Below the pieces are notes generated by a model that saw only the letters and a list, made by a program, of their open reading frames with translations, was not told the DNA's origin and did not search any database. Shown here piece after piece: positions 4,065 to 23,438 of a DNA stretch of 64,000 nt. The position numbers were made by a program, and so were the translations under genes. The stretch is taken from NCBI GenBank assembly GCA_030650795.1, contig JAUSDJ010000031.1, positions 153,123 to 217,122 on the forward strand. The letters run 5' to 3'. The DNA comes from Actinomycetota bacterium. GTDB lineage: Bacteria; Actinomycetota; Actinomycetes; S36-B12. The first letter of the stretch is position 1; each line of letters begins with the position of its first letter.

Positions 4065-5497
4065 TGTTTGAGCACACCTTGGATGTCGGCGATGGCCAAC
4101 GGCGTATTGCCAATGCGCGAGACCTGAATTGCCGATGCCACCGAACCGAGGACAGCTGCCTCCATGCCCGAGGCGCCACAGGCGATCGCCAAGGCGCTGA
4201 CCACCAGCATCGAATCACCCGCGCCGGCCACATCGAAGGGCCGCTGATTCAGCGCAGCAACCTGATCGGTGATCGCCGGCTCATCAGTGTCCTGCCCGCG
4301 AATCAGCACTCCGTCTCCACCAAGAGTCAAGAACACGAGTCGGGCCTGGGCCAGCTCGCGCAGTTCATCAGCGAGCACCACCAGACCATCATCGCTATTG
4401 CGCGTAGCCAACCGCGCCTCGCGCTCAGTGGGAGTGATCAGGTGCATGCCCTTGAAGCGGGCCACGTTGCCGACCTGCGAGGAGGACTGGCTGTCGGCCG
4501 CAAGCACGATGCCATCGGCTTGGGCGTCGCTGCAGATGCGCGCGACTACAGCTTGCGGCAGGCATCCGTAATTGAAATCTGAGAATATCAGGACATCGGC
4601 GTTGGACAGTTGCTTGTGCACTTCATCGCCGAGTTGCTGCTGAAGTTGCTCGGCAATCGGACCCTGTTGCAGATGACTCACTCGCAGCAAGGTCTTGCCC
4701 GCCGCGCGATAACGCTGCTTCAACGTGGTTGGCCTGTTGGCGTCTTCAATGAGCGTGGTCTCAACGCCGCAGTCCTGGAGGGATGCGCGGATGAACTCGG
4801 CAGTGTCGTCAGCGCCGACCACACTGAACAGCGCGGAGCGGCTGCCAAGCCCAGCGGCGTGAGCAGCAACGATTCCGGCACCGCCCAGGAACAACTCACT
4901 GTCGATGGGAGTCACCACGACAGTTGGATCCTCCTGGGACATTCCTAGTGCATGGCAGGAGATGTACTCATCGGCCATCACGTCGCCGACAACGACAACG
5001 CTGCGTTGCTTGAAGTCCTCAAGAATTCCAAGCAATCGATCAGCGGTGATCCCGTGGCGTTCCATGAAGGCCATCGGCAGGCGCACCTGTGCCCGTTCCA
5101 CAATTCCGCCGTCAAGCCCGAGGTAATCCTCACCGTCGACGAACACCTCACCCGAGCCGAATAGCAGGCTGCCGCCGTAACTGTCGACCACATCCTTCTC
5201 AAGATTCCACCCGAGCTCATGCTCGCGACCCTTGACCACCACGTCGGGCTTGAGATCCAGAATGACATCTTCCAAGGGCTCCTCGATGAGAAATGCCTCG
5301 TCAACAAATCGCAGGCTTCGCACGCCTTCAAGCCGATCGCGCTCGCGAACACTGGCGGCTGACCCGGCCAGTTGGTCACTCAGGATTCCCACGACAAGGG
5401 TGCCCCGCAATTCCTTGGCAAATCGCAGCAGTCGCATGTGCCCTGGGTGGACCACATTGAATACCCCGGATACGAAGGCAGTTCCCGACTCAGGCAC
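4061..5497 (-). CDS. bifunctional cytidylyltransferase-like / PfkB sugar kinase (HldE/RfaE-like, domains in reversed order)
   Basis: N-terminus FVSGVFNVVHPGHMRLLRFAKE is the HxGH nucleotidyltransferase motif. C-terminal 310 aa is ribokinase/PfkB-like (VVVVGDVMADEY ... DVAGAGDSML). AAGGAG lies 6 nt upstream of GTG 5497; the ORF track starts at TTG 5503. Confidence 0.75.
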   Translation of the reverse strand: MPESGTAFVSGVFNVVHPGHMRLLRFAKELRGTLVVGILSDQLAGSAASVRERDRLEGVRSLRFVDEAFLIEEPLEDVILDLKPDVVVKGREHELGWNLEKDVVDSYGGSLLFGSGEVFVDGEDYLGLDGGIVERAQVRLPMAFMERHGITADRLLGILEDFKQRSVVVVGDVMADEYISCHALGMSQEDPTVVVTPIDSELFLGGAGIVAAHAAGLGSRSALFSVVGADDTAEFIRASLQDCGVETTLIEDANRPTTLKQRYRAAGKTLLRVSHLQQGPIAEQLQQQLGDEVHKQLSNADVLIFSDFNYGCLPQAVVARICSDAQADGIVLAADSQSSSQVGNVARFKGMHLITPTEREARLATRNSDDGLVVLADELRELAQARLVFLTLGGDGVLIRGQDTDEPAITDQVAALNQRPFDVAGAGDSMLVVSALAIACGASGMEAAVLGSVASAIQVSRIGNTPLAIADIQGVLKQ

Positions 5498-6557
5498 CTG
5501 CAACTCCTTGGGGTCTCAAATCGATGTAAGGCCGCACAACCGTACCGGCCTCAAGATCAGTGAAGGCTTCACTAATCGAGCCTAGTAAGTAAGAGCGCTC
5601 TAGCAGGATTTCCAGATCAATTCCGAGTTCCTGCACGGCGGTGGCTATGCGCGGGATATCGCGTTCGGGCACGCAGGCCCCGCCCCACGAACCTCGAATG
5701 CTCTTGCCCTGGATCAAATCGTGGGGATCCAGAGAGATCAACTCACCCGCAGCCGGATGCGAGGCGAATACCAAAGAGCCGCTTTTGGGACGCAGGCACG
5801 CGAAGCCGAGTTCGATTGTCTGGATAGATCCCGCGGCCTCCAGGCAGAAATCCGCACCGCCACCAGTCAGATCACGAACAGTGGCGAGGAAATCAACGGC
5901 AGTTGGGTCAAGCACATGACGAGCACCCAGCCTGCTTGCCAAAGCTCGCTTGGCAGCTGAAGGATCAGCCGCGATCACCTGCGCCGGGCACCGACTCAGC
6001 GCCCCAATGAGTGCTGCCATCCCGACGCCGCCAAGTCCAAGCACCAACACTGAGTCGTGCGAACCCAGGTCAATCTCATTGATCGCCATTCCGGCTCCAG
6101 TTAGCAACGCACAGCCGTAAAGCACCGCCGATGGTCCAGTAATCACCGATGGTTGCGGATAGACGCGGCTTTCAGCTGCCACCACGTATTCGCTGAACGT
6201 GGTCACTGGCCCGGAATTGACGGGGCCCGCATCAGAACCGTAGATCGCGCCGGGTGCATCAAGCCCCGCACCCTTGATCCAGCCCAGAATGACCTGATCC
6301 CCTGCCGCCACCTTGGTGACACCAGGTCCGGTGTGAATGACCTCGCCGGATCCCTCATGACCAAGAAGATGCGGCAGCCATGCATCTGCCCCGCGGAGAC
6401 CGCGCACTTCCATCAACTGACTTCGGCACACACCGCTGTAGTCCAGGCGAACGAGCACCTGGCCTAGGGCAAGCTCGGGCGCAGCAATCTGTTCAATTGA
6501 CAGTGCGCCACCGAGCTCACGCAGCACTGCTGCCTGAAAGGCGTCGGGCGAACTCAT
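5490..6557 (-). CDS. zinc-dependent alcohol dehydrogenase family oxidoreductase
   Basis: GHEGSGEV zinc-ADH signature and an LGLGGVGMA Rossmann motif. ATG at 6557 overlaps the stop of the upstream GT4 gene (ATGA at 6554-6557). The longer 6605 start adds an implausible MDGHSHSHSQ leader. Confidence 0.75.
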   Translation of the reverse strand: MSSPDAFQAAVLRELGGALSIEQIAAPELALGQVLVRLDYSGVCRSQLMEVRGLRGADAWLPHLLGHEGSGEVIHTGPGVTKVAAGDQVILGWIKGAGLDAPGAIYGSDAGPVNSGPVTTFSEYVVAAESRVYPQPSVITGPSAVLYGCALLTGAGMAINEIDLGSHDSVLVLGLGGVGMAALIGALSRCPAQVIAADPSAAKRALASRLGARHVLDPTAVDFLATVRDLTGGGADFCLEAAGSIQTIELGFACLRPKSGSLVFASHPAAGELISLDPHDLIQGKSIRGSWGGACVPERDIPRIATAVQELGIDLEILLERSYLLGSISEAFTDLEAGTVVRPYIDLRPQGVAGA

Positions 6558-9473: not shown

Positions 9474-10760
9474 CTACAGATTCACCCAACCGCGAGCGTT
9501 CTGACTCTGCGTGGAACCAAGCCGACCCTGGGTGTCGAGCAGCCGGGGGCTGGTCGCAAGCGCCTGCGGGATCAGATAGCAATCATGGGCTTGCAGCAGC
9601 ACTGCGCAATCAGCCAAGGCTGCAGCTGCGGGAAGGTCAACAGCCTTCGGCACCATCACCTCGTCAACGATCCACTCCTCTACGTAGGGATCATGAAACG
9701 TCACAAGCGCACCTTGCCTGCGCAGCTCCTGAAGCACGGCGATCGATGGGCTCTCGCGCAAATCGGCAATATTGGCTTTATAGGTGATGCCCAATAGCAG
9801 AACCGATGCCCCAGCGAGTTCGATCGATTCCTGATTCAACAGTTCCTGCAGCCGATGCACGACGTAGTTGGGCATGCTCGCGTTGATCTCTTGAGCCAAC
9901 TCGACAAATCGAAGACTCTGGCCCAGTTCGGTGCGCACCCGGTGGCCAAGGTAATTGGGATCAATGGGGATGCAGTGCCCACCGACGCCTGGGCCGGGCC
10001 GGAAGGCATGAAAGCCATAGGGCTTGGTCTCGGCGGCGGCAATGACATCCCAGAAGTCGATGCCCAGGAGATGGCTGACCTTGGCGAGCTCGTTGACCAA
10101 GGCAATGTTCACGTGGCGGTAGGTGTTCTCCAGCAGCTTGGCCATCTCAGCCTCTTTCAACCCCTTGGTGCGGACCACCTGCTCGGTCAAAGTCAGATAG
10201 AACTGCTCCGCCCGGTCCGCGCACTCAGTGCTGAAGCCACCGACAACCTTCGGTGTATTGCTGAAATTCCAGCGCCGATTGCCCGGATCAATCCGTTCCG
10301 GACTGAAGGCGAGCGAGAAGTCAACGGTTGCCTTAAACCCATTTCGCTCCAAGATCGGCTTCACGACCTCTTCAGTCGTACCGGGGTAGGTGGTGGATTC
10401 CAGCACCACCAATGGACGCTTGGCCGCATCGATATGACCAGCAATCATGGCCGTGGCGGCCTGAACAGCACGAAGATCTGGGCTGCCGTCGGCAGATAGC
10501 GGGGTTGGAACACAGATGATGAAAACATCAATGTCAGTCAGTTCATTGATGTCATTGGTGGGATGAAATCCTTGTCCGAGCCATTTCCCAACGAGGTCTG
10601 ACGCAATGTCATCGACATGGGATTCTCCAGCCGCTAAGCCGACGACAACCGCCTCATTGACATCGAAGCCCACGACCTGGTGCCCAGCCTCAATGCAGGC
10701 GCCAATCAGCGGCAGCCCGACATAGCCAAGACCGAACACGGCAATTCGCTGACCCACCAC
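9474..10760 (-). CDS. nucleotide-sugar dehydrogenase (UDP-glucose/GDP-mannose dehydrogenase family)
   Basis: IAVFGLGYVGLPL NAD-binding start, central GGHCIPIDP catalytic-Cys motif, length 428 aa. Confidence 0.85.
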   Translation of the reverse strand: MVGQRIAVFGLGYVGLPLIGACIEAGHQVVGFDVNEAVVVGLAAGESHVDDIASDLVGKWLGQGFHPTNDINELTDIDVFIICVPTPLSADGSPDLRAVQAATAMIAGHIDAAKRPLVVLESTTYPGTTEEVVKPILERNGFKATVDFSLAFSPERIDPGNRRWNFSNTPKVVGGFSTECADRAEQFYLTLTEQVVRTKGLKEAEMAKLLENTYRHVNIALVNELAKVSHLLGIDFWDVIAAAETKPYGFHAFRPGPGVGGHCIPIDPNYLGHRVRTELGQSLRFVELAQEINASMPNYVVHRLQELLNQESIELAGASVLLLGITYKANIADLRESPSIAVLQELRRQGALVTFHDPYVEEWIVDEVMVPKAVDLPAAAALADCAVLLQAHDCYLIPQALATSPRLLDTQGRLGSTQSQNARGWVNL

Positions 10761-10840: not shown

Positions 10841-12277
10841 TCACTTGATGGCTTCCGCAAAGGTCATGATCGTGCCCAACAGTTTGACATTGGCTTCGTC
10901 AAGCAGTCGCGCGGCGGACTCCAATTGCTTGCATGTGGTTCGCCCACGTCCCACAACGATCACCGCGCCATCGGCAATAGCGCCGATTACAGCAGCATCC
11001 GTACTCGACAGCAGCGGCGGAGCATTGATGATCACCAGATCCACTTGTGTTTTCAGATCAGCGAGCAGGAGCTCCATCTGCTCGGAGGCCAGAAGGGCAG
11101 TGGCATCGGCGAGATGAGGCCCGCGTGGAAGCACGCGCAGCGCGCCACGATGCCAAGTCAACTCGGCTTGACTCAAGGGCATAACTCCCGCGAGCACGTC
11201 GGGCAGCCCCACTTCAGAGTCAACGCCGAGATACGCCCCCAGTTTGGAATTATGCAAACACGCATCAATCAACATCACTGATCGTCCCGACTCAACAAAA
11301 CTCATTGCAAGATTCACTGCTGTGGCAGTTTTACCCGAGCCAGGGTTTGCACTAGTGATCACCACTGCGGCCGGGAAAACCTTTGACTGCTGAAGAGCTG
11401 CCTGACCAAGCGCCCGCTTGAGATGCTGTTCGATCTCGGGGCGAGGGGTCATCAAGATCTGATTGAAGGACCTCGAGGTTGACGCAATATGACCAAGATT
11501 CTCCGTGCGAAGACACTCCTGCAGATCAGCCTGGGTCTGGATCGGCGCTTGACCGCGCAACCGTGCCGGCAATCGGCTCTTGAGGCTGAATCCGGGCGAA
11601 TTGAACGCAGGCTCATTGAGCGCATCGTCCTGAGCGCCTGTCTCCATCGCATTGGCTACGAGTTGGCCTGCTTGAGCTATCGCGATGAAAGCCTCTGCCA
11701 GCGCTGTTGATGCATGGGCCACCTGATCAAGAGTTCCTCGATGATCAATATCCCCGTGACGATCCTCAATGTCGTCGTGCTGCGGATCCCAGGATGCGAG
11801 CATCCCTCGAGCTGCATCCATCTCAACCACAAGCCAACGAAGTCGATCGAGGGTGGAGTCCGGGAAAGGTTGCGCCCCTGGCGGTGTCGAACCGCTTGCA
11901 ACAAATTGAGCGACCCACGTCGCCAATCGAGCGGCCTGGCGAATCGTGAAGGTGTCTTGCCGGCTTGCCGGATCCATCCGAGCAATCCAAGCTCTCTGAG
12001 TTCGATCAGCCGTCAGCAGCAAATCTGCTCGCTTCAGCAATGCCGGGGTGAGTTGCCGCGAATCGCCAATCGCTCCAGCAAGGCCAACGTAACTTGCTGC
12101 TTGCGGGCACATCGCGTCACCGACCGCGGCAAACGTACCAGCCCAACTCACGTGGACCGCAGGACGAAGCGCAACAAGGGCACTGCGCATCACGCTTGCA
12201 GCCAGCGGCGAACGGCAGACGTTCGCCGAACAAGCAACTAGCACCTCGAAGGATTCCTGCACACGCAATCTTCCCAC
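10841..12277 (-). CDS. fusion of LMW phosphotyrosine phosphatase domain and BY-kinase-like P-loop ATPase domain
   Basis: N-terminus VLVACSANVCRSP is the CX5R(S) PTP loop. C-terminal domain has Walker A SANPGSGKTATAVNLA, Walker A'-like VMLIDACLH and Walker B-like DLVIINAPP. Confidence 0.7.
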   Translation of the reverse strand: MGRLRVQESFEVLVACSANVCRSPLAASVMRSALVALRPAVHVSWAGTFAAVGDAMCPQAASYVGLAGAIGDSRQLTPALLKRADLLLTADRTQRAWIARMDPASRQDTFTIRQAARLATWVAQFVASGSTPPGAQPFPDSTLDRLRWLVVEMDAARGMLASWDPQHDDIEDRHGDIDHRGTLDQVAHASTALAEAFIAIAQAGQLVANAMETGAQDDALNEPAFNSPGFSLKSRLPARLRGQAPIQTQADLQECLRTENLGHIASTSRSFNQILMTPRPEIEQHLKRALGQAALQQSKVFPAAVVITSANPGSGKTATAVNLAMSFVESGRSVMLIDACLHNSKLGAYLGVDSEVGLPDVLAGVMPLSQAELTWHRGALRVLPRGPHLADATALLASEQMELLLADLKTQVDLVIINAPPLLSSTDAAVIGAIADGAVIVVGRGRTTCKQLESAARLLDEANVKLLGTIMTFAEAIK

Positions 12278-12339
12278 TTGGCCGCTATGAGGATGCCAAC
12301 CGCCCAGATTCTCCGCAGGTTACGAGGTCGGATATCAAC

Positions 12340-12804
12340 GTGCTCATCCCCGTCCTCAACCCATTGTTCATTGAGAACGCCCGAAGCATCATGGATCCTG
12401 CTTGGCCGATTTCGTTTGAAATTCACGACTTTGTCCAAGCCGCACTTCCTCATCAATACTCCGCGGTCTACGCCTTGGATGTCCTGGAACACATTGAACC
12501 GCGCGATGAGTTCGATTTTCTCTCGAATTTGGTGGCCTCATTGGTGGACGATGGAATAGCGGTCATCGGCATGCCGAGCATTGAAAGCCAACCCCACGCG
12601 AATCCCGCCAGTCGTGACGGCCACGTCAATTGCAAGTCGGGGCCTGATTTGAAGGAATGCCTCCGGACTCACTTCCAGCAAGTCTTCGTTTTTTCTACGA
12701 ACGATGAGGTGATCCACACGGGGTATCCCCCGATGGCCCACTATTTGCTGGCTCTTTGCGTCGGTCCTATTCGCACCTGTTGGCCAGTGCTGCCAGGACT
12801 CTAG
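12340..12804 (+). CDS. truncated class I methyltransferase-like protein (possible gene remnant)
   Basis: Contains only post-motif-I regions (YSAVYALDVLEHIEP, DDGIAVIGMP). No GxGxG motif in any frame upstream. The ORF track start (12094) overlaps the convergent-strand gene, so the internal GTG 12340 is used. Start is very uncertain. Confidence 0.35.
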   Translation: MLIPVLNPLFIENARSIMDPAWPISFEIHDFVQAALPHQYSAVYALDVLEHIEPRDEFDFLSNLVASLVDDGIAVIGMPSIESQPHANPASRDGHVNCKSGPDLKECLRTHFQQVFVFSTNDEVIHTGYPPMAHYLLALCVGPIRTCWPVLPGL

Positions 12805-13188
12805 AGGTTCATTGAGCATTCCTGAATGGAGCCTCTCCTCGATGGAATCCCCCGCATCTCACCTCGCACAGGCCCGAGCAAGCCCGCGTTGCTTGCGATG
12901 GCTGGGCATGTCGTGAGCCGCTTGGGTCTGCCCGCCACTGGGAGGAGCTGTGCGCGAATACATCGATCTACGCCTCCGCGGCTCGTTCGGTACTGCCACT
13001 TACGCGCAAATCTGAATCGTTGATTCGCCGGCACTAGTCCACGTCTGCCGCAAGCGAATTGGATGGTTTTTTCGTCACGTTCATGTCGCAACTACGTACC
13101 AATTCCTTCAAGGATCGGCCTTCCCCGTTAGCCTGCAAATAGAGCTCCCGATGGGCGCTTGGGCAAACATGCGTCGAGGAGAACTCAA

Positions 13189-13485
13189 ATGAAGAGAACA
13201 CAGAAATTAGCCGCAGCGATCACCGTTATGACTGCCATTCCGTTGGTAGGCCTAGCCCTAGCCATGCCAGCGAATGCCGCTCCAGCAGATCTGCTGGAGG
13301 CGGTAGGGGTTCCAGCAACTGGCCTCTGCACTGATGTCGTGGCACCAGCAGCGAACTTGGCCGGCGTGGCCAATGGCAGTTGGAGCAAGTCATGGGGAGT
13401 GTGGATCTCACCGACCCTTGGTGGTCCGGTGTGCGTTCGCACCCTTTGGTACAACAACTCCACACAGTTGTGGGATCGCCGCTAA
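13189..13485 (+). CDS. small secreted protein (signal peptide, two Cys)
   Basis: GAGGAG Shine-Dalgarno 7 nt before ATG 13189. MKRTQKLAAAITVMTAIPLVGLALAMPANA/AP looks like a Sec signal with an AxA site. Followed by a terminator hairpin. Confidence 0.5.
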   Translation: MKRTQKLAAAITVMTAIPLVGLALAMPANAAPADLLEAVGVPATGLCTDVVAPAANLAGVANGSWSKSWGVWISPTLGGPVCVRTLWYNNSTQLWDRR

Positions 13486-13520
13486 ACGTGCGGCTAGTAC
13501 CACCTGCTTGAAAAGAATGC

Positions 13521-13562
13521 GGCCCCCCGAACTCAACTTGAGTTTCGGGGGGCTTTCTTTCT
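13521..13562 (+). terminator. rho-independent terminator
   Basis: CCCCCCGAACTCAA / TTGAGTTTCGGGGGG stem with one bulge, followed by CTTTCTTTCT. Lies 36 nt after the stop of the small secreted protein gene. Confidence 0.6.
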
Positions 13563-13805
13563 CATGGAGTCTTTCCTCCACAGTGACCGCTCCCCTGGCC
13601 TCCCAGCAGGCCTGCGCATGGCGCGCAAGCCGATGCTTCCTCGATGCCTGCGTGACTCCAACTAATGAGTCGGGAGTCCTGAGTCGCGGGGCGACTTAGG
13701 CGTGGGCGCTCAGGTCGAACTCGGTTTCATAGGCGATACTTCGCACATGTCTTGTCTGATTTGCTTCGGCTTGATCTGCAGTAGTAGTGCTCGTACGGAT
13801 CTATC

Positions 13806-15836
13806 GTGATTGCAGACACCAGCAATCCGGTCCTGATTGCGCCCAACACTTACTGGGTCGGCGTCAATGACCATCCGCTGGGGCTTCAGTGCAACCCATA
13901 TCTGATCCTTGACGGTGATGATGCTGTGTTGATCGATCCGGGGTCAGTCCTCGACTTCGAGTATGTGCGCGCCCAGGTGGAGAAGCTGATCCCAATCAGC
14001 AGCATCAGCACGATCGCACTGAGCCATCAGGACCCTGACCTCTGTTCAAGTGTGACGCTGTTCGAGCGCGCTGGGTTCGAGGGGCACATTGCCACGCACT
14101 GGCGGGCATCGGTTCTCCAGCGCTATTACGGCATCACCTCGCCGTTCTACCTGGTCAATGAGCATCAGTACGCGCTGACGCTGCGGTCGGGCAAGGTCAT
14201 CGAATTCATCCCAACCCCTTACTTGCACTTCCCCGGTGCAGTAGCCACGTTCGATCCGCAGACCAGGGTCCTGTTCTCGGGGGATCTCTTCGGCGCCTTC
14301 TCGACCCACTGGTCCTTTCGCGCCGACAAGTCAACCTATATCGAGGGCATGAAAGCGTTCCACGAGCATTACATGCCCAGCAACGACAACATCCGGCCGG
14401 TGATGGAAATGCTGCTGGCGATGGACATCGACGTCATCGCGCCTCAGCATGGATCCATCATTGATGCCGACATCGCGGACTACATCGTTGCCCTCCGGGA
14501 GCTTGAGTGCGGCACGATGCTCAATCCGATACGGCACGAGCTTGCCGCCTCAGGCGGATTCACCAGCATCGTCGAGCAGGTGATCCGCAGGTTGCAAGGG
14601 CTCTACCAGGCGGACGAGGTGCTCGGCGTCGTGCAGCACATGGAGATGACGATTGATCCTGGAACCTTGACGATTGGGGAATTTTCCTACACCGGCGTGG
14701 AACTGTGGAATGCCCTGTTCCAGACCATGGCTGATGCGGGGAAGCAGTCCTGGCTGACGGCGGTTGAGCCATTGGTCCGCAAGCTCGCAGCCGAGTACGA
14801 CATCGAGATGCCCCAGTACTACCTGAACGAGCGATCGACAACCCAGGTTCGCATCGACCAGCTTGCCCAAGAGATCGACAGTCTGCGCGCGCTCAATGTC
14901 CGCCTGGACACCACGCTGCGCGAATCGGAGGACAAGCTCACCAGATGCCCGCTGACAGGCCTTCGGAATGAGCGCTTCTTCACCGAATTCCTGCCGGCGA
15001 GCGTTGCGCAGGCCGAGGCCGCGGGCCAGGACCTCACCTTGGTCTATGTCGGAGCAGACCGCATCGCTGACGTGACCTATGCACGAGGCAAGCAGGCAGG
15101 CGATGAGGTCATCAAGAGCGTGGGTTACCTGCTTGAGCGGGGATTGGAGCGAAATGAGCAGCTGTTCCGCCTCGATGGCCCCAACTTCGTGCAGATGCTC
15201 ATCGAGGTGTCCGGCGAGCGAGCCGTGCTGACCCGAGTCGAGCGCATCCGTCGCGAGGTTGCCATGTCCACGATCTCACTGGATCCCCTGACGGTCTCCA
15301 TCGGGACGGTATCCCTAAGCGAGGCGCGCACCCATCAGCCAGACCCAGCCGAGCATGCATCGCTCATGGCCCGAACTGGACTGCTGCGTCTTCGTGTCGC
15401 GAGCAATCGCGGCGGCGACACCATCTGCTCGACATCGGACATCGAGCATCCGTCCACCTCGGCCGGAACGATTGTGATCGCCGACCCGGATCCGGTGAAT
15501 ATCGACGTGCTCACGACTGCGCTGCAGGCCATGAACTTCGAGACAATCGGTTGCTCAGATGGGCTTCAAGCGCTTCAGGCGATCGAGCATGGGTCCATCA
15601 GTGTCGTCATCGCCGAGGCGGTCTTGCCGAAACTCGATGGTTTCGCGTTGCGCGAGGCGCTGTCGTCGGCGTCTGCCTTCAGGGAGCTGCCGTTCCTCAT
15701 GATGGGATACGAGAAGGACGCCGAGACAGTCGCTCGCGCCCAGAGCCTGGGGATCAACCACTTCTTCAAGAAGCCATACCTGCTGTCCGAACTGGTCGGC
15801 ACTGTGCGTCTTGAGCAGCGACCGCGTCTGAGATGA
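13806..15836 (+). CDS. di-iron (FDP/ODP-like MBL-fold) sensor with degenerate GGDEF domain and pseudo-receiver domain
   Basis: N-terminus: SHQDPD, LHFPGA, LFSGDLFG, APQHGSII (flavodiiron-like lactamase-fold motifs). Coiled-coil linker. GGDEF fold with RLDGPNF in place of RxGGDEF. C-terminal receiver fold with VVIAEAVLPKLDG (Glu at the Asp position), LMMGYE and FFKKPY. Confidence 0.8.
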   Translation: MIADTSNPVLIAPNTYWVGVNDHPLGLQCNPYLILDGDDAVLIDPGSVLDFEYVRAQVEKLIPISSISTIALSHQDPDLCSSVTLFERAGFEGHIATHWRASVLQRYYGITSPFYLVNEHQYALTLRSGKVIEFIPTPYLHFPGAVATFDPQTRVLFSGDLFGAFSTHWSFRADKSTYIEGMKAFHEHYMPSNDNIRPVMEMLLAMDIDVIAPQHGSIIDADIADYIVALRELECGTMLNPIRHELAASGGFTSIVEQVIRRLQGLYQADEVLGVVQHMEMTIDPGTLTIGEFSYTGVELWNALFQTMADAGKQSWLTAVEPLVRKLAAEYDIEMPQYYLNERSTTQVRIDQLAQEIDSLRALNVRLDTTLRESEDKLTRCPLTGLRNERFFTEFLPASVAQAEAAGQDLTLVYVGADRIADVTYARGKQAGDEVIKSVGYLLERGLERNEQLFRLDGPNFVQMLIEVSGERAVLTRVERIRREVAMSTISLDPLTVSIGTVSLSEARTHQPDPAEHASLMARTGLLRLRVASNRGGDTICSTSDIEHPSTSAGTIVIADPDPVNIDVLTTALQAMNFETIGCSDGLQALQAIEHGSISVVIAEAVLPKLDGFALREALSSASAFRELPFLMMGYEKDAETVARAQSLGINHFFKKPYLLSELVGTVRLEQRPRLR

Positions 15837-18715
15837 CAGCCCTAAGTGAGACTGCCGTACTGCTGCTAGCTGTCGCGTCGATGCTGGCGTGCGCGGCGGC
15901 GGTGCTGGCCACGGTGCTGGCCAAGGCATCGCGGACGCGCCGCATGCGCGTGCAGCGGCAGTTGGAGCACGAGATCTCGCGCCTTGAACCCGGGGATGCG
16001 TTCGCCGCTCCAAAGAGCCAAACTCGTGAGGTCCTTGCTGCCTACGTCGATGTGCGTCAGTCCGCGACCCTGTCCCCGCTGACGGTCGAGGGAGTGCGAG
16101 CATGGCTTGTTGACCAGGGCGTGGAGCGGGTACTGATCCGCAAACTCGGTTCGCGGCGTGCCATTCGGCGTGTTGAGGCGGCGACCGCGCTCGGCTACCT
16201 GCCCGGTGACTCGGTGCGGCAGGCTCTTGTCGATGCCCTGGGGCGTGAACAGCGCGACACTGTGCGGCTGCGGATCGCCGTTGCCCTGCATCAGGTGGAC
16301 CCGGATGCGAGCGTGGCGATCCTCTTGGACAGCATCCTGAGCGCGAGCGAGTGGATTGCGGTTCGTGCCAAGGGCTTACTGTTGGAGGCAGGGCGATCGT
16401 TCTACCTCATTGCGCGCACCATGCTCGCGACCACAGAGACGCGTCTCACCGGCATCCTCATCGACTTCGCGGCCGTGTATCCCGCCACGGACCTGCGCGA
16501 TTTCCTCGTTGCCCGCGTATGGTCGAAGGACGCGGACGTCTCCATTCACGCGGCCCAGGCATTGCGGGCTATGTATCCATCGATAATCGCGGACGAGCGT
16601 TACATGGATCACCCGCTCTGGCAGGTGCGGGCCAATGCCTATGGGGCCTTGGCCAGCACACCGAGCCGTCGAACTCTGGAGCGCCTCCTCGCGCGCACAT
16701 CCGATATGGCTCAGGCGAGCTCCTGGGCGCGAGCGACTCCAGATTACGACCTGGAGTTCGCCGAGTTGCAGGTTGCGGCAGCCAATCTCCTGCGCACTCA
16801 GCCGAGCCTTCTGCCGACCGTTGCCGAGGCGTTCGTTTCCACTGACGTCCCCGAGTACCGGAGTGCCCTGGCGTCGCTGCTCTCCTCACGAATCCAGTAC
16901 TACTTCATGCAACTGATTGGCCCCGACGCCGATGCCGCGCGCGCGATCGTGCGCGCGATCGTGGCCTCAGGCAGGAGCAGTGAGCTGATCGGCTTCTTGA
17001 ATCGCAATCGCAATGTGGAGCTCGAGAACGAGGTCCTTGCATGCATCCAGCCCCTGCTTGAAGCAAGTCCGCAACTGGTGCAGGAGCTGGAGTGGTATCT
17101 CGCGCCGAGGATCCTGGACAAGATCGGCCTCGAAGAGCGCAGTCGCGCCACACCGCCAAGAGTGGAGCAACGCGTCAAGTCGAAGATCGTGCGGATGTAC
17201 GCCCTGCTGGTCGTTGCGCTGCTGGCCTTCCCACTTGCGTTCTGGCTGCTCAACCGCTCGGAGTTCGGTGTGCTCTCTCCACTGGACCTGCTGCGCGAGT
17301 ACGTGACCGCGTGGAACTCGGCTCTGCTGGTGTACATCGCTGCGCTGCAGGTGGCGACTCTCGCCATCCTGGTCTTCGCCGTCATCGGCGTGCGTGCGCA
17401 AGCCAGATCCTGGCGGGCCAAGCCGTACTCGCTGCTGTTTCGTCCCAAGGTGCTGCCGTCAGTCTCGATCGTGGCCCCAGCCTTCAATGAGGAGTCGACG
17501 ATCGTTGAGAGCGCGAGTTCCCTGCTGGGCATCCAGTATCCCGATTTTGAGCTAATCATCGTGAATGACGGTTCCCGCGATGCCACCATGGAGCGACTCA
17601 TCGAGCACTTCGAGCTCGAGAAGGTGGATCGCACGATCCCAACGACCCTGGCGACCAAGGCCGTGCGCGGCATCTACGCCAGTCCCGCGGTCCCGCAGCT
17701 GCTCGTGGTTGACAAAGACAATGGAGGCAAGGCCGACTCCCTGAATGCTGGGATCAACATGAGTACCAAGGAGTACTTTTGCGGCATCGATGCAGACTCG
17801 CTGCTCGAGTCCGACTCGATGCTCAAGGTCGCTGCTGGGTGCCTGGATTCGGTCGACGAGATGGTGGCCGCGGGCGGGAACGTGTTCCCGATCAACGGCT
17901 GTACGGTCGAGCGCGGCGCCCTTGTCAAGGTCGGCCTGGCACGCTCGCCATTGGCGCGGTTCCAGACCATCGAGTACATCCGGGCCTTCATGGCAGGTCG
18001 CGTCGGCTGGGCCTATGTGAAGTCGCTCTTGATCATCTCGGGGGCCTTTGGGCTGTTCCGCAAGGAGCGCGTGATCCAGGCGGGCGGGTACTTGACCGAA
18101 TCGGGTCCTTACCGCCAGGACACCGTCGGTGAGGACATGGAATTGGTCGTCCGCCTGCGACGCGAGATGATCGAGTCGGGTATCCCCCACCAGATCAACT
18201 ACGCCTACAACGCAAACTGCTGGACCGAGGTGCCCGAGACCATCTCTACGCTGCATCGTCAGCGCGACCGCTGGCAGCGCGGACTGGTCGACATACAGTT
18301 CCTGCACCGCAGGCTGCTGCTGAACCCGAGATACAAGTCCACCGGTCTTATCGGGATGCCGTACTACTTCGTGTTCGAGCTGTTTGGCCCGTTGATTGAG
18401 GCGCAGGGGTACATCATGCTCATCCTCGCGGCAATCACTGGGCTGCTTGAGCCGGCAATGGCGATTGCGCTGTTCACGACGATCGTGCTCTGGGGAATCC
18501 TCGTCTCGACCCTGTCGCTGTACATCGCGGAACTCCAAACCAGCTATTTCACTCGACGCGAGATCGCCACCATGCTCTGGTACGCAGTCCTGGAGAATTT
18601 TGGCTTCCGGCAGCTCGCGAGCCTGTGGCGCGTCTCGGGGTTCTTCAGTTCACTGCGCCGACCACGAGGGTGGGGTGAGATGCGCCGCAAGGGGTTTGCA
18701 GTTGCCGCCCAGTGA
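15833..18715 (+). CDS. HEAT-repeat domain fused to GT2 processive polysaccharide synthase (PgaC/IcaA/cellulose-synthase-like)
   Basis: ATGA start/stop overlap with the upstream sensor gene. N-terminal TM helix, then about 430 aa of HEAT/PBS-lyase-like repeats (e.g. RRVEAATALGYLPGDSVRQALVDALG). TM pair, then GT2 core (IVNDGSRD, DKDNGGKADSLN, GIDADS, GAFGLFRKE, QRDRWQRG) and C-terminal TM helices. Confidence 0.8.
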   Translation: MTALSETAVLLLAVASMLACAAAVLATVLAKASRTRRMRVQRQLEHEISRLEPGDAFAAPKSQTREVLAAYVDVRQSATLSPLTVEGVRAWLVDQGVERVLIRKLGSRRAIRRVEAATALGYLPGDSVRQALVDALGREQRDTVRLRIAVALHQVDPDASVAILLDSILSASEWIAVRAKGLLLEAGRSFYLIARTMLATTETRLTGILIDFAAVYPATDLRDFLVARVWSKDADVSIHAAQALRAMYPSIIADERYMDHPLWQVRANAYGALASTPSRRTLERLLARTSDMAQASSWARATPDYDLEFAELQVAAANLLRTQPSLLPTVAEAFVSTDVPEYRSALASLLSSRIQYYFMQLIGPDADAARAIVRAIVASGRSSELIGFLNRNRNVELENEVLACIQPLLEASPQLVQELEWYLAPRILDKIGLEERSRATPPRVEQRVKSKIVRMYALLVVALLAFPLAFWLLNRSEFGVLSPLDLLREYVTAWNSALLVYIAALQVATLAILVFAVIGVRAQARSWRAKPYSLLFRPKVLPSVSIVAPAFNEESTIVESASSLLGIQYPDFELIIVNDGSRDATMERLIEHFELEKVDRTIPTTLATKAVRGIYASPAVPQLLVVDKDNGGKADSLNAGINMSTKEYFCGIDADSLLESDSMLKVAAGCLDSVDEMVAAGGNVFPINGCTVERGALVKVGLARSPLARFQTIEYIRAFMAGRVGWAYVKSLLIISGAFGLFRKERVIQAGGYLTESGPYRQDTVGEDMELVVRLRREMIESGIPHQINYAYNANCWTEVPETISTLHRQRDRWQRGLVDIQFLHRRLLLNPRYKSTGLIGMPYYFVFELFGPLIEAQGYIMLILAAITGLLEPAMAIALFTTIVLWGILVSTLSLYIAELQTSYFTRREIATMLWYAVLENFGFRQLASLWRVSGFFSSLRRPRGWGEMRRKGFAVAAQ

Positions 18716-18793: not shown

Positions 18794-20047
18794 TCAACGG
18801 GACATTATTTGCACTAGACGCTCCGCAGTGGTTTCCAGGCCCCACCGCTCAACTGCAGTCTTCCTTGCGGCCTGGGCGACCCGATCATGGATCGGCGAAG
18901 GTAGTGCGACGATTTCTCGCATCTTCGTGGCGAGATCTCGAACGTCGCCAACACGAAAGCGCGTGAGATGGGCTTGCGCTGTTGGATAGTTTTCGGATAG
19001 TCCCATTGCGACCTCAGCCAGTCCGGCATGAAACGCGACCAATGGAGGCGAACCGCACGCTGCCGCTTCCGCGGCAACCAAGCCGAAGGCCTCGGGAAGC
19101 ACCGACGGCACGACGCTGACTGTCGCCAAGGGCCACAGATGCGCAAGATGACGGTGACCCAGGGGTCCAGTGAACAGGACAGATGATCCGCACTCTGCCT
19201 CAAGTTCCTCGCGAAGCGGCCCGAAGCCCGCAATGACAGCCCGCGCTGGAACATCGAGAAGGGCTCGCATCAGCAGGTCAACACCTTTTTCTTTGCTTAG
19301 CTTTCCCACGTACACAACCGTTGGTTGCTGGTCGGAAAGGAACGCAGTGAGACGGTCGGCGTTACCAGGATCGGGTAAGCGGTAGTTGGATCGATTGCTG
19401 TTTGGCGGGTCCAACTGACATTGAGCAATCAACGATGTTAACGCCTCATCCGGGCTCTGCGGATGAAGTCGCTGGGTGTCGACTCCGGGCGCCACCACAT
19501 GCACGTTGTGTTCGTAGTCGCCAGGACCAACGACCTCGCGCAGCCGGTGAACGATATGTAATGATCCCGCAATAACCGCGTGGGCTTGGCGTAGTGACGC
19601 AACGGCCCACTGGATGAGTTCCGGGTTGCCGCTCATGGCGAATTCAAGTTCAGATCCGTGGACCATCACAGCGAAAGGCAACCCAGACGCCGCACCCACG
19701 GGAGCCCCCATTAGCAGATGGTTGGTGATCAGGAAATCGGCCGGACCTTGAAGCCTGATCACCTCCGCAGCTTGTTGGACGAAGTGTTCGCGCTCCTCAG
19801 AGGCGAAATCCTGGAGGAGCCGCGGCGTCATGTCGGAGTACTGATCGAGGACAAACACCGGAAGGTCGCCATCCATCGGTGGGCGCACCGCGCGTGCTCC
19901 GCCGAGGTCGAACCGAGCCGGATCCGCGTCCTGACTCAAAACGGTCACGTCATGACCCTGGCTGCTCAGCTCACGGGCAATCGATTGGGTGAAAATGTTC
20001 GAACCCGTGCCATCCAGCAAATAGCCATGCCAGATCAAAATCCTCAC
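18794..20047 (-). CDS. glycosyltransferase family 4
   Basis: MRILIWHGYLLDGTGSNIFTQSIARELSSQGHDVTVL start and C-terminal VVPSVLPEAFGLVAAEAAACGSPPLV (EX7E-like motif). Confidence 0.8.
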   Translation of the reverse strand: MRILIWHGYLLDGTGSNIFTQSIARELSSQGHDVTVLSQDADPARFDLGGARAVRPPMDGDLPVFVLDQYSDMTPRLLQDFASEEREHFVQQAAEVIRLQGPADFLITNHLLMGAPVGAASGLPFAVMVHGSELEFAMSGNPELIQWAVASLRQAHAVIAGSLHIVHRLREVVGPGDYEHNVHVVAPGVDTQRLHPQSPDEALTSLIAQCQLDPPNSNRSNYRLPDPGNADRLTAFLSDQQPTVVYVGKLSKEKGVDLLMRALLDVPARAVIAGFGPLREELEAECGSSVLFTGPLGHRHLAHLWPLATVSVVPSVLPEAFGLVAAEAAACGSPPLVAFHAGLAEVAMGLSENYPTAQAHLTRFRVGDVRDLATKMREIVALPSPIHDRVAQAARKTAVERWGLETTAERLVQIMSR

Positions 20048-20393: not shown

Positions 20394-21191
20394 CTAGTTC
20401 TGGCAGACCTTTTCGATGGCTTTTATCCCCTCAATATCGCCGCTTCCGATCTGCCGATCGACCGGCAAATTGGTATCTAGGTACCTGAACATGACATTGC
20501 TGGGATCGTCGCTGTCTGCAAGACCCAGTGCGTGGCCAAGTTCATGCATGAAGAGCAATCGACGGTCGAAACTGTTTGTTCTGACTAGATAGTCCGTGCT
20601 GACTGCGATATAGCCATTGACGATCTCCTTGCTGCCTGCAAACACTCGACTTGGCGATCCATACCCGACGACGTTCTTTGTGATGATCGACGATTTCGAG
20701 TCGGGAACAAAGTACACGGCAATATTGCGACTAATGTCCTTGACGGGCTTGACCGTGGTGGTCGCATCGTTGTAGGAGACCGCTAGTTCTCCACCATCGG
20801 CAAAGGTCAGCCCCGATGCCTTCGCCCAAGCATCGAAGGCCGCCCCAAGGTCGGGGCGCACGACGGCTGCCTGTTTAGGTGTCAGGTTCGACGTGTCCGT
20901 CGTCCACGAGATGGGAGCCGAGCAGGTGGCCCAACCACTGCCAGCGAATGCCGCATCGGTGTAGATGGAGCCCACACGGGTTGTCCCCCACGCAAGCACG
21001 CTCGTGGCTGCGACGGCTGCAATCGTGCACAACACGGTTATCAATGGGCGCCGCCGATAGGTGAGACGGTAGTGGCGTTCGTATTTGAACCATGTCCGCC
21101 GGCGAGTAATACCGTCATCGAAATAGTCACGCGCACGGCGCAATGGGTGACTCGGATTCCTCCGCTCGTGGCCCAGCGGTGACTCAGACAT
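20394..21191 (-). CDS. membrane-anchored zinc metalloprotease (matrixin/snapalysin-like, HEXXHXXGXXD)
   Basis: HELGHALGLADSDDPSNVMF zinc-binding motif with Asp as third ligand and a Met-turn candidate. N-terminal TM helix LITVLCTIAAVAATSVLAWG. Confidence 0.65.
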   Translation of the reverse strand: MSESPLGHERRNPSHPLRRARDYFDDGITRRRTWFKYERHYRLTYRRRPLITVLCTIAAVAATSVLAWGTTRVGSIYTDAAFAGSGWATCSAPISWTTDTSNLTPKQAAVVRPDLGAAFDAWAKASGLTFADGGELAVSYNDATTTVKPVKDISRNIAVYFVPDSKSSIITKNVVGYGSPSRVFAGSKEIVNGYIAVSTDYLVRTNSFDRRLLFMHELGHALGLADSDDPSNVMFRYLDTNLPVDRQIGSGDIEGIKAIEKVCQN

Positions 21192-21728: not shown

Positions 21729-23438
21729 GTGCGTCATGTTCCACGCGCTTCTGATGAGTCGCACGTCACGGAGCTGTTGACGATCATGCAACGCGGGAGC
21801 GGAGGCGGGCTCTATGACCCGTCGGAGAAGCCCGTCGAACTTGACGATGGAGTCTGGTGGGTCGGAGTGCGGCTTTTCGACAACACTTTCCAATGTCATG
21901 CGTACCTCATTGAAAACGGCACGGATTCGGTGCTGATCGACCCGGGTTCCAATGTCACGATTGATGGTGTCCTGGCGAAGGTTCGACAAGTCATGCCACT
22001 GGAGAACATCAAATATCTCGTGTGTCATCACGCCGACCCGGACGTGTGCTCATCACTGCACGATCTGACTGGCATTCTCAAGCGTGACGACGTCCAGGTC
22101 ATCACTGAGTGGCGAGCACGGGAATTACTTGACCATTACGGTCACCGGTTTCCGTACTACCTGCTTGAGGACCACGCTTGGCGCCTTCCGCTCGCAGGCG
22201 ATCGCGAACTCCAGTTCCAACTCACCCCGTACCTACATTTTCCCGGAGCTTTCGTAAGTTTCGACACGCACACCCGTACCCTCTTCTCGGCTGATCTGTT
22301 CGGCGGCTTCGTTCCGGATTCCAATATTCTCATCGGGACCGATCTTGAATACATTCTCGAGGCGGCTCGCCCATTCCATCAGCACTACATGCCGAGCCGT
22401 CAACTGCTTGAATTGGGGCTCACTCGCATCCAGCAGCACTGGCCAAACATTGCTCGCATAGCGCCGCAGCATGGGCACGTCATCGAAGGCGAACTCGTGC
22501 AGCCGGCCTTCGAGGGGCTCAAGCAGTTGGAGTGCGGAATCTTTACTCTCTCCGACGCGGATCTTGATCTTCAACACCTCATGCGCCTGAGCGAAAGCAG
22601 GGCGCACATCCTGCAAGCACTGCTCGAAGCACATTCCCCCAGGGATCTCGTTGCACACATCAACCGAATCCTTCATGACATTCAAATTGCTGCTCAAGTC
22701 GTCCTTCGGCTCTTCCTGCCAGACGAACGCCAGTGGGTGGAATGGGGGGTCGAGGGCGCCAAGACAGTGCACAGTGGGACGCATCGAGGTTGGACCACGA
22801 TCCCGCTAGACGGCATGCCTAAGGCGAATCTCCTAGTAAGCGGGCGCGACGGTGACCCGCTCGACAAAGACTTCACATCGATGCTGGATGCGATGGCGGC
22901 AATCATTCGCCCAACGGTCGAGCAGTATCTGGCCGAGCGGCGACTCCACCAAGAGGCTGAGACCGACCAGTTGACGGGGTTGGGAAATCGTCGAGCGCTG
23001 GAACTGGTCATCCCGGCGGATCGCTACTGTGTCGTGGCAATGGACGTGGATCACTTCAAGCGAGTCAACGACGAATTCGGGCATCCGACTGGGGATCGAG
23101 TGCTGCAAAGGGTTTCCGCGGCTGTTCGCAATACGGCCCGATCCGGGGATGGGGTATTTCGCACTGGAGGTGAGGAGTTCCTTGTCTATTTGCCTAGGGC
23201 GACAAAGGAAGCGGCTTTTCGCGCGGCCGAGCGCATTCGCGCTGCTGTGTCATCCCTCGATCTCACAGGTGAGGCTCCTGGAGGCCACGTCACTCTCAGC
23301 GCTGGCATCGCCGAACTTGAGCGCAGTGATGCCGGTCGCCTCGACGACGTCATGTTGCATGCAGACGAGGCGCTCTATCGAGCCAAGCGTGGAGGACGCA
23401 ACCAAATATCGGTCTACCCGACCACGACGCCGAACTGA
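21729..23438 (+). CDS. di-iron (FDP/ODP-like) sensor diguanylate cyclase (intact GGEEF and I-site)
   Basis: GGAGG 7 nt before GTG 21729. CHHADPD, LHFPGA, LFSADLFG and APQHGHVI motifs are paralogous to ORF 13806. C-terminal GGDEF domain has VAMDVDHFKRVNDEFGH and RSGDGVFRTGGEEF. Confidence 0.85.
   Translation: MRHVPRASDESHVTELLTIMQRGSGGGLYDPSEKPVELDDGVWWVGVRLFDNTFQCHAYLIENGTDSVLIDPGSNVTIDGVLAKVRQVMPLENIKYLVCHHADPDVCSSLHDLTGILKRDDVQVITEWRARELLDHYGHRFPYYLLEDHAWRLPLAGDRELQFQLTPYLHFPGAFVSFDTHTRTLFSADLFGGFVPDSNILIGTDLEYILEAARPFHQHYMPSRQLLELGLTRIQQHWPNIARIAPQHGHVIEGELVQPAFEGLKQLECGIFTLSDADLDLQHLMRLSESRAHILQALLEAHSPRDLVAHINRILHDIQIAAQVVLRLFLPDERQWVEWGVEGAKTVHSGTHRGWTTIPLDGMPKANLLVSGRDGDPLDKDFTSMLDAMAAIIRPTVEQYLAERRLHQEAETDQLTGLGNRRALELVIPADRYCVVAMDVDHFKRVNDEFGHPTGDRVLQRVSAAVRNTARSGDGVFRTGGEEFLVYLPRATKEAAFRAAERIRAAVSSLDLTGEAPGGHVTLSAGIAELERSDAGRLDDVMLHADEALYRAKRGGRNQISVYPTTTPN

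Follow-up and report, generated by a model that had tools for sequence, protein, structure and literature searches.

A HEAT-solenoid GT2 synthase and an overlapping ODP-GGDEF-receiver gene as a candidate oxygen/iron-responsive exopolysaccharide module

To our knowledge, all well-studied synthase-dependent exopolysaccharide systems (cellulose, poly-N-acetylglucosamine (PNAG), alginate, Pel and NfrB) are switched by receptors of cyclic di-GMP (c-di-GMP). The locus described here lies in a stretch of 64,000 nucleotides (nt) from an Actinomycetota bacterium (contig JAUSDJ010000031.1), which was analysed at its full length and is called the window below. It consists of two genes on the + strand: a synthase gene (15833..18715), which starts with ATG and encodes a glycosyltransferase family 2 (GT2) protein of 960 amino acids (aa) with an N-terminal HEAT-type alpha-solenoid, and a partner gene (13806..15836), whose 676-aa product is composed of an ODP domain, a helical linker, a degenerate GGDEF domain and a pseudo-receiver. 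The system belongs to the synthase-dependent exopolysaccharide systems, a known kind, and has an undescribed regulatory architecture that is found widely, for the most part in lineages that are known to be anaerobic. We read the two genes, with a probability of roughly 60%, as an oxygen/iron-responsive exopolysaccharide module in which the solenoid is a fused adaptor linking a receiver-type regulator to the synthase.

Among the characterised families, PgaC/IcaA (PgaCD, IcaAD) scores best against the catalytic half of the window synthase. In both, two transmembrane (TM) helices precede the GT-A domain and the D/DxD/ED/QxxRW motifs are present; if our reading is right, post-translational control of a synthase-dependent system is a further common trait. 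However, PgaD/IcaD, PgaB/IcaB and PgaA are lacking in the window, and an extension of 450 aa, made up of a TM helix plus the solenoid, is added; moreover, c-di-GMP acts at the PgaC-PgaD interface, whereas the regulator here would be an ODP protein with degenerate GGDEF and receiver domains. The hyaluronan synthases (HAS) of Chlorella virus and Xenopus and the chitin synthases (CHS) provide the closest solved folds for the GT/TM part (8smp, 8snc, 7sp7, 8k3p) and share a conserved W-G...R motif near the C-terminus, but they are only 13-17% identical to the window protein and lack a HEAT, ODP or receiver partner. BcsA with its PilZ domain is likewise a processive GT2 enzyme whose gating is controlled by a regulatory module on the cytoplasmic side, and BcsE, which carries a degenerate receiver followed by a degenerate GGDEF domain, is a precedent for this pair of domains in a synthase-associated regulator (PMC8892547). 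In contrast to these, the window system lacks PilZ, BcsB and an I-site, and the degenerate GGDEF domain precedes the receiver and is combined with an ODP sensor. The NfrB (GT2-MshEN) and DgcJ pair of E. coli also joins a GT2 enzyme carrying a fused cytoplasmic regulatory domain to a dedicated signalling partner (PMC8669469); in that pair, however, a c-di-GMP-binding MshEN domain is fused at the C-terminus, whereas the window synthase has a HEAT solenoid at its N-terminus and a partner that is predicted to be unable to synthesise c-di-GMP. On the sensor side, the ODP-chemoreceptor pairs of Treponema denticola and Thermotoga maritima contain the same di-iron ODP (6qrq, 6qnm) tied to its output through a neighbouring gene (PMC7666581, PMC7319448), but the output there is CheA; here it would be a polysaccharide synthase, and the ODP is fused to a pseudo-GGDEF domain and a pseudo-receiver.

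The partner and synthase genes overlap in an ATGA stop/start (15833..15836, + strand; ...ctg aga TGA, with the ATG at 15833). A genome scan, for which one genome per species was taken, yielded 58 loci related to the synthase at 33-56% identity (best segment; most at 35-48%). By tblastn, a partner homologue was found directly upstream and on the same strand in 53 of the 58 loci; the other five have less than 400 nt of upstream DNA, and adjacency therefore holds in 53/53 informative loci across at least six phyla. The gap between stop and start is -4 nt in 21/37 loci and lies between -11 and +5 nt in 35/37. In several Treponema-type loci, the ODP and GGDEF-receiver matches fall in two separate segments. 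The two nearest relatives of the window synthase (P0006, with 51% identity, and P0007) are encoded in bare two-gene units with unrelated flanks, one of which is embedded among histidine-biosynthesis genes. The partner and synthase genes thus form one unit. An earlier note on this DNA, made from the letters alone, had named no dedicated regulator of the synthase; the ODP-GGDEF-receiver gene, of which a homologue directly precedes the synthase in 53/58 loci, shows that the synthase does possess such a partner.

The distribution of the fusion was examined by an exhaustive phmmer search over 1.84 billion representatives, clustered at 50% identity, which returned 12,334 matches. About 85 representatives (940-1010 aa) also cover the N-terminal region, with E-values from 1e-120 down to 0, while lower-ranked GT2 proteins of about 460 to over 1,200 aa match aa 490-957 only, at 39-45% identity. 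The loci occur in at least six phyla, namely Spirochaetota (including Treponemataceae and Rectinemataceae), Bacillota, Chloroflexota, Fibrobacter, Margulisbacteria and Actinomycetota. The carriers include four species of Acetobacterium (A. woodii, A. fimetarium, A. malicum and A. wieringae), Anaerobium acetethylicum, Christensenella, Flexilinea flocculi, Anaerolinea, Fibrobacter and Marinamargulisbacteria, and many of them belong to genera known as anaerobes. The clusters are uninformatively named 'glycosyltransferase family 2 protein', and the window synthase itself is deposited as 'glycosyltransferase [Actinomycetota bacterium]'. A word-indexed search with the full-length query returned only the query and four unrelated chitin-synthase-like fusions, which reflects a failure of candidate selection and not rarity; word-indexed searches with the N-terminal domain alone and with the family alignment gave nothing useful. 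Therefore, the HEAT-GT2 architecture is common but unannotated. The earlier note had taken it for an unusual arrangement, which does not agree with about 85 clusters at 50% identity and 58 loci. The note had also allowed that the architecture might prove common and already characterised; it is common, but full-text literature searches turned up no description of a HEAT-GT2 synthase or of a link between ODP and a synthase.

The class of the enzyme is given by its C-terminal half. In Pfam, three overlapping GT2 families match aa 542-887 (E = 1e-15 to 2e-10), and the GT-A catalytic domain was placed at aa 542-830 (17456..18322, + strand) by a motif alignment of homologues and by Foldseek. In the 60 full-length homologues of alignment A1, which also served as input for the AlphaFold2 model and for all invariance counts, D579, D653xD655, E767-D768 and Q810-R811-x-R813-W814 are invariant (60/60). 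The peptides on which the first assignment had relied were all located: VNDGSRD at aa 577-583, DKDNGGKADSLN at aa 627-638, GIDADS at aa 651-656, GAFGLFRKE at aa 737-745 and HRQRDRWQRG at aa 808-817, as well as AATALGYLPGDSVRQALVDAL (aa 116-136) and WQVRANAYGALAS (aa 262-274) in the repeat region. When the full-length model was compared with the PDB by Foldseek, hyaluronan synthases led the ranking (8smp, 8snc, 7sp7; target TM-score (TMt) up to 0.62-0.63), followed by BcsA and yeast Chs1, with a probability of 1.00. These results support the view that the window protein is a membrane-integrated processive GT2 synthase of the HAS/PgaC/BcsA class, predicted from its motifs and modelled fold to polymerise and translocate its product, and the PgaC/IcaA/BcsA-type identity proposed earlier stands.

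Assignment to one of the characterised families is another matter. In NCBIfam, PgaC/IcaA (TIGR03937) is the best model (E = 6e-31), but its 107.8 bits compare with an equivalog cut-off of 422.3; the XrtG-associated GT, NodC and CelA models rank lower, and the CelA model TIGR03030 gives 34.7 bits vs a cut-off of 699. Pfam and NCBIfam scans found no PilZ or MshEN domain in the synthase. No polysaccharide deacetylase and no small PgaD/IcaD-like partner adjoins the synthase or is conserved in the 58 loci, and no porin or BcsB-like gene is adjacent to it in the window. The absence of PilZ, of a PgaD-like partner and of an adjacent deacetylase, porin or BcsB-like gene had been noticed at first reading and is confirmed here. 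By score and operon partners, the window protein does not belong to the PNAG synthases of TIGR03937, and by PilZ, BcsB and the CelA hidden Markov model (HMM) it does not belong to the BcsA cellulose synthases.

As to the polymer, the PgaC/IcaA and NodC HMMs, the Chitin_synth_2 matches of homologues and the HAS-like fold all point to the GlcNAc side, and a beta-linked, GlcNAc-containing chain is our tentative suggestion from these sequence likenesses, at somewhat less than even odds. The Romboutsia mixed-linkage glucan synthase RiGT2 was considered as a relative and rejected, as it is BcsA-like and has a PilZ domain. A GH16 glycoside hydrolase gene is found just 5' of the ODP partner gene at L018:6154-6903 and in eight other loci, mostly of Acetobacterium; this could point to a glucan with beta-1,3 or mixed linkages as the product in the Acetobacterium clade.

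The N-terminal half of the synthase begins with a membrane anchor, TM1 (aa 8-30; 15854..15922, + strand; Kyte-Doolittle peak 2.61), and KASRTRRMRVQR lies directly C-terminal of it, in a basic, cytoplasmic stretch with 7 K/R in aa 30-50. Hydropathy and the positive-inside rule then indicate a soluble stretch to about aa 448. It is followed by TM2 and TM3 (aa 449-528; 17177..17416, + strand), which hydropathy places at about aa 450-476 and 494-525, with a basic stretch after them, and the AlphaFold2 model at aa 449-473 and 483-528. Since two membrane crossings separate the solenoid from the GT domain, which uses UDP-sugars, both must lie on the same, cytoplasmic side of the membrane. This topology answers the question, raised at first reading, of whether the HEAT repeats are cytoplasmic, and the picture of one TM helix and a long repeat region ahead of the synthase was also correct (TM1, then a solenoid of ~370 aa). 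After the GT domain come C-terminal membrane and interface helices (aa 832-941; 18326..18655, + strand; hydropathy and AlphaFold2 model), with hydrophobic helices at aa 850-902 by hydropathy. Near the C-terminus, the motif G-W947-G-x3-R952-K-G954-F955 (18668..18697, + strand) is invariant in A1, apart from K/R at the position after R952, with W947 and R952 in 60/60 homologues; it is a candidate gating loop.

The solenoid itself (aa 61-430; 16013..17122, + strand) is recognised by Pfam, the family profile, AlphaFold2 and Foldseek. For the window protein alone, the Pfam family HEAT_2 matches aa 111-176 with 27.7 bits, exactly the gathering score. Over positions of about 100-296, the profile built from the 60 homologues matches designed alphaRep/HEAT proteins (E = 6e-29), and the HEAT assignment is therefore firm at the family level. 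The full-length AlphaFold2 model has a mean predicted local distance difference test score (pLDDT) of 92.7 and a predicted TM-score (pTM) of 0.91. In it, aa 6-49 form one long helix and aa 61-430 about 25 short ones, while the GT-A fold occupies aa 544-800 and further long helices lie at aa 804-941. Modelled alone (aa 50-445, alignment A3), the solenoid consists of 26 helices with pLDDT 91.6 and pTM 0.80, and its top Foldseek matches are exclusively alpha-solenoids (designed ARM, alphaRep, importin-alpha, AP2 beta, PP2A-A/Integrator, CAND1 and Kap121p), at modest TM-scores of 0.3-0.43. The alpha-solenoid nature of the N-terminal region, which had first been guessed from the look of the repeats, is thus upheld by model, fold search and profile together. 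A BLAST self-comparison of the solenoid detected no internal sequence repeats, the repeats being visible solely at the profile and structure level. Sequence conservation in the N-terminal region is low save for R113, E139 and the block at aa 340-435, the most conserved of the solenoid (LAxxLSxRIEYF, FLNRNRNxExEN, YLxPRLLxKLGL). In 21/41 locus homologues, of Acetobacterium and Treponemataceae types (e.g. L004, L012, L013), an insertion of 45-64 aa follows the position of window residue 232 (about nt 16528) and carries a CxxC...C...C motif, which could be a zinc ribbon or a redox/metal site; the solenoid of the window protein lacks this insertion.

The origin of the solenoid is indicated by relatives, about 470 aa or longer, that lack it. 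In all five solenoid-less relatives examined (P0157 from Brevundimonas viscosa, P0102, P0106, P0098 and P0104), a gene for a 320-414-aa protein lies immediately upstream, overlapping the synthase start or at most 5 nt from it. Three of the five upstream proteins are annotated HEAT_2, and all five start with a hydrophobic N-terminal segment. Two of these standalone HEAT proteins were compared with A1 by hhalign (probability 96-97%, E = 3e-9 and 5e-10): that of Brevundimonas is colinear with columns 15-297, including TM1, and the other matches columns 67-295. TM1 of the window synthase accordingly aligns with the N-terminal TM helix of standalone HEAT proteins. Because solenoid-less relatives encode a homologous HEAT protein next door, the window synthase is best understood as a HEAT subunit fused to its synthase. 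The earlier note had presented the HEAT domain as a stand-in for the known regulatory modules, and this interpretation gives way to that of a fused form of a subunit that is separate in solenoid-less relatives.

Receiver domains accompany the family in several forms. In 4/5 split loci, a single-domain receiver of 122-136 aa is encoded one or two genes further upstream; three of the four have the canonical Asp, while that of L065 has Ala there. A TPR- or YaiO-type protein is sometimes encoded between the receiver and HEAT genes, and hybrid histidine kinases or Hpt proteins are encoded nearby. Three HEAT-GT2 proteins (P0010, P0035, P0050) continue, a few residues beyond the C-terminal GWGKMxRK motif, into a fused receiver, and the locus of P0050 contains in addition a hybrid kinase/Hpt phosphorelay and, directly upstream of the synthase, an ODP...receiver gene. 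Receiver domains are thus obligate companions of this synthase family, and on the sequence evidence receiver, HEAT and GT2 are the conserved core of a wider family. Meanwhile, P0068 and P0008 have the synthase joined through one extra TM helix to a second protein, c2, which in 35 loci is encoded by a gene directly downstream of the synthase (e.g. L018:12139-15309). It is about 1055 aa long with an N-terminal TM helix and presumably extracytoplasmic; in Pfam it gives only weak GH72 matches (5/18 members), and its profile found no match among PDB sequences. From the receiver and c2 fusions it follows that the C-terminus of the synthase is cytoplasmic. The operons at L062, L065, L066 and L067 (including Brevundimonas viscosa) have the order receiver - (TPR or YaiO outer-membrane barrel) - HEAT - GT2 and look like an undescribed phosphorelay-controlled synthase system.

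The partner matches the Pfam families ODP (PF19583, E = 4.7e-60, over 194/194 profile positions), GGDEF (1.7e-14) and Response_reg (4.9e-13), and Pfam found no DNA-binding or kinase output domain in it. Its ODP domain (aa 27-216; 13884..14453, + strand) matches oxygen-binding diiron proteins of solved structure (6qrq/6qwo, E = 3e-30; 6qnm/6r9n, E = 4e-26). HQDPD, LH, SGD and PQHG of the partner align with the solved ODPs, with ligands including H141, D160 and H215, and the metal-ligand columns are retained in about 38-40 of 50 partner homologues. The domain is thus predicted to be a di-iron sensor of O2/Fe. According to two papers that summarise Muok et al. 2019 (PMC7319448, PMC7666581), ODP senses O2 and Fe(II) and has been drawn into several signalling pathways through fusion or operon linkage; in Treponema denticola it acts as a chemotaxis sensor (PMC7666581). 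The GGDEF-like domain (aa 382-511; 14949..15338, + strand) is degenerate by motif reading: the partner has FRLDGPNF where RxGG(D/E)EF is expected, and ERNE where the RxxD I-site is expected, five residues upstream of the GGDEF position. GG(D/E)EF is absent from 50/50 aligned homologues, and the I-site columns are not conserved. In the pseudo-receiver (aa 556-667; 15471..15806, + strand), the 50-homologue alignment places Glu604 at the phospho-acceptor position, a column with Glu in 45/50 and Asp in 4/50 homologues. The other hallmarks (D560, D562, S/T634, K656-P657) are kept across the partner family, with Gly at 634 in the window protein. With a degenerate GGDEF domain and a Glu acceptor, the partner should therefore be able neither to make c-di-GMP nor, in most members, to be phosphorylated.

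Taken together, 13806-15836 and 15833-18715 would constitute a self-contained module by which exopolysaccharide is produced in a regulated, synthase-dependent way. The synthase would be the polymerising and translocating enzyme, and TM1 plus the solenoid a fused copy of the membrane-anchored HEAT subunit. The solenoid would lie next to the GT domain at the cytoplasmic face, where it may act as a docking platform for a receiver-domain regulator. In the window this regulator would be the co-translated partner, whose di-iron ODP may sense O2 and Fe(II) and whose metal or O2 state may be relayed by conformational change through the pseudo-GGDEF and pseudo-receiver domains. As the GGDEF domain is apparently unable to make c-di-GMP and the receiver has Glu, the signal is expected to travel by conformation or protein contact and not by second messenger or phosphotransfer. 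Its end point could be the cytoplasmic face or active-site entrance of the synthase, possibly the invariant C-terminal GWGxxxRKGF loop; we take the W-G...R motif in it to resemble the WGTR loop that serves for gating or priming in HAS, CHS and NodC, a lead for experiment. The output would be oxygen- or iron-responsive secretion of a polymer for aggregation or protection, and oxygen-triggered matrix production is the natural guess because many host lineages are known as anaerobes. The analysis itself shows the anatomy of the two proteins, their motifs and fold, the reasoning on topology, the linkage of the genes across phyla, the degenerate state of GGDEF and receiver and the existence of split as well as fused forms; that the partner docks on the solenoid, how the synthase is gated, in which direction it responds and what it makes are inferred.

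Several observations weigh against this reading. The metal ligands of ODP are missing from about 10 of the 50 partner homologues, and sensing of O2/Fe may therefore not extend to the whole family. The HEAT_2 match of the window protein taken alone stands at threshold, and its N-terminal sequence is poorly conserved. Neither the window nor the two nearest relatives (P0006, P0007) have c2. The accessory genes of other lineages, of GH16 and weakly GH72-like type, belong to families acting on beta-1,3-glucan and oppose a GlcNAc polymer. The partner could touch the GT domain rather than the solenoid. In a mirror-tree analysis, the distance matrices of partner and synthase correlate (r = 0.67-0.96), and partial correlations controlling for the GT domain are 0.35-0.72 for partner and solenoid and 0.35-0.38 for partner and C-terminal TM region; these partial correlations are a weak hint, confounded by rate differences. 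Finally, a gene 3 kb downstream encodes an ODP-GGEEF protein that is intact and has the RSGD I-site. It would fit an alternative in which control is by c-di-GMP, with the partner's degenerate GGDEF domain or the solenoid as receptor in the manner of PelD, BcsE or YdaK, the ligand supplied by the nearby ODP-GGDEF cyclase, and HEAT as a passive scaffold. Degenerate GGDEF domains are indeed established c-di-GMP receptors in other exopolysaccharide systems (PMC8461298, PMC8892547). However, the RxxD I-site, the binding element of PelD/BcsE-type receptors, is absent from the partner (ERNE) and unconserved among the 50 homologues, and without PilZ or MshEN in the synthase this route would be left with no recognisable receptor site; we consider it quite unlikely.

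The solenoid might instead be an autoinhibitory or oligomerisation domain, the partner acting on the GT domain or C-terminal loop directly, or indirectly. That receivers are fused at the synthase C-terminus and not at the solenoid would fit, as would the full-length pTM of 0.91, which suggests that the solenoid is packed against the rest of the enzyme. But HEAT, receiver and GT2 co-occur as separate genes in 4/5 split systems, HEAT solenoids are typically protein-binding scaffolds (the Foldseek matches include importins, AP2 and PP2A-A), and the partner-solenoid distance correlations lie, weakly, above the partner-TM ones; this explanation is unlikely, if deserving of some weight. Adjacency could also mean co-expression only, with the ODP protein serving chemotaxis or transcription and the synthase constitutive. 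ODP is a chemotaxis sensor in Treponema denticola (PMC7666581), and genes for methyl-accepting chemotaxis proteins lie near the module in one locus. Against this, the two genes are adjacent in every informative locus, in no fewer than six phyla, the 4-nt overlap being conserved while the flanks are otherwise unrelated; the partner has no DNA-binding or kinase output domain, and receiver-synthase fusions exist. We regard mere co-expression as highly improbable. The preferred reading, a receiver-type regulator linked to the synthase through a HEAT adaptor, can be extended to a new class of control, in which a di-iron ODP is wired through a dead GGDEF domain and a non-phosphorylatable receiver to the HEAT adaptor of a synthase, so that oxygen or iron gates secretion without c-di-GMP or phosphotransfer. 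This class would be spread over Spirochaetota, Bacillota, Chloroflexota, Fibrobacterota and Actinomycetota and derived from an older three-gene system of receiver, HEAT and GT2 that is still phosphorelay-controlled in Proteobacteria. We put forward this wider claim as speculative, and think it rather more doubtful than not.

If the reading is true, the module would represent a widespread alternative to c-di-GMP control, in which oxygen or iron acts through a switch at the protein level and no second messenger is needed. A HEAT adaptor subunit, undescribed for bacterial synthases in the literature searched, would come with it, as would the first non-chemotaxis output of the ODP sensor family. 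The module is a testable candidate for how oxygen-sensitive bacteria, among them acetogens, treponemes and Anaerolineae, respond to oxygen exposure with a protective matrix or aggregation. In addition, the unannotated receiver-HEAT-GT2 triad, with YaiO/TPR genes interposed in Gram-negatives, is flagged as a distinct secretion system family.

The surroundings of the two genes in the window were also inspected. The second ODP-GGDEF gene (21729..23438, + strand) matches Pfam ODP at 9e-53 and GGDEF at 3.8e-36, and with both its RSGD I-site and GGEEF intact its product is apparently an active diguanylate cyclase. One dead and one live ODP-GGDEF protein are thus encoded less than 8 kb apart in the window. 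Its tblastn matches in 44 loci are not separated from cross-matches to the partner gene, and it is a candidate neighbour only, module membership not being implied. The convergent GT4 gene at 18794-20047, pointed out at first reading, is present but recurs in only 1/58 related loci, and the UDP-glucose dehydrogenase, low-molecular-weight (LMW) phosphotyrosine phosphatase/ATPase, GT4 and M10 peptidase genes, which recur in 0-1 of 58 loci, were rejected as members of the module. Of these, the matrixin (peptidase M10) homologue (20394-21191, - strand) lies between the GT4 and second ODP-GGDEF genes and is not conserved in related loci. The phosphatase-ATPase gene (10841-12277, - strand) encodes a 478-aa fusion of an N-terminal LMW phosphotyrosine phosphatase and a C-terminal ParA/AAA_31 (BY-kinase-like) ATPase, and adjoins the UDP-glucose dehydrogenase gene (9474-10760). 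In the roughly 1.5 kb that precede the partner gene (12280-13805), no open reading frame (ORF) matches Pfam and nothing matches Rfam, and no riboswitch or other RNA element was found upstream of the operon in Rfam. Further downstream, a 970-aa ORF (31994-34906, + strand) matches no Pfam family; it was tried as a distant c2 and rejected (hhalign probability 0.6%), and its end is overlapped by a cytidylyltransferase-methyltransferase fusion gene (34903-36015). On the other side, within a glycan-precursor cluster with NTP-transferase, Zn-dehydrogenase and GT4 genes, the gene at 4061-5503 (- strand) encodes a bifunctional protein with an N-terminal cytidylyltransferase-like domain and a C-terminal PfkB sugar kinase, a domain order that we take to be the reverse of that of HldE.

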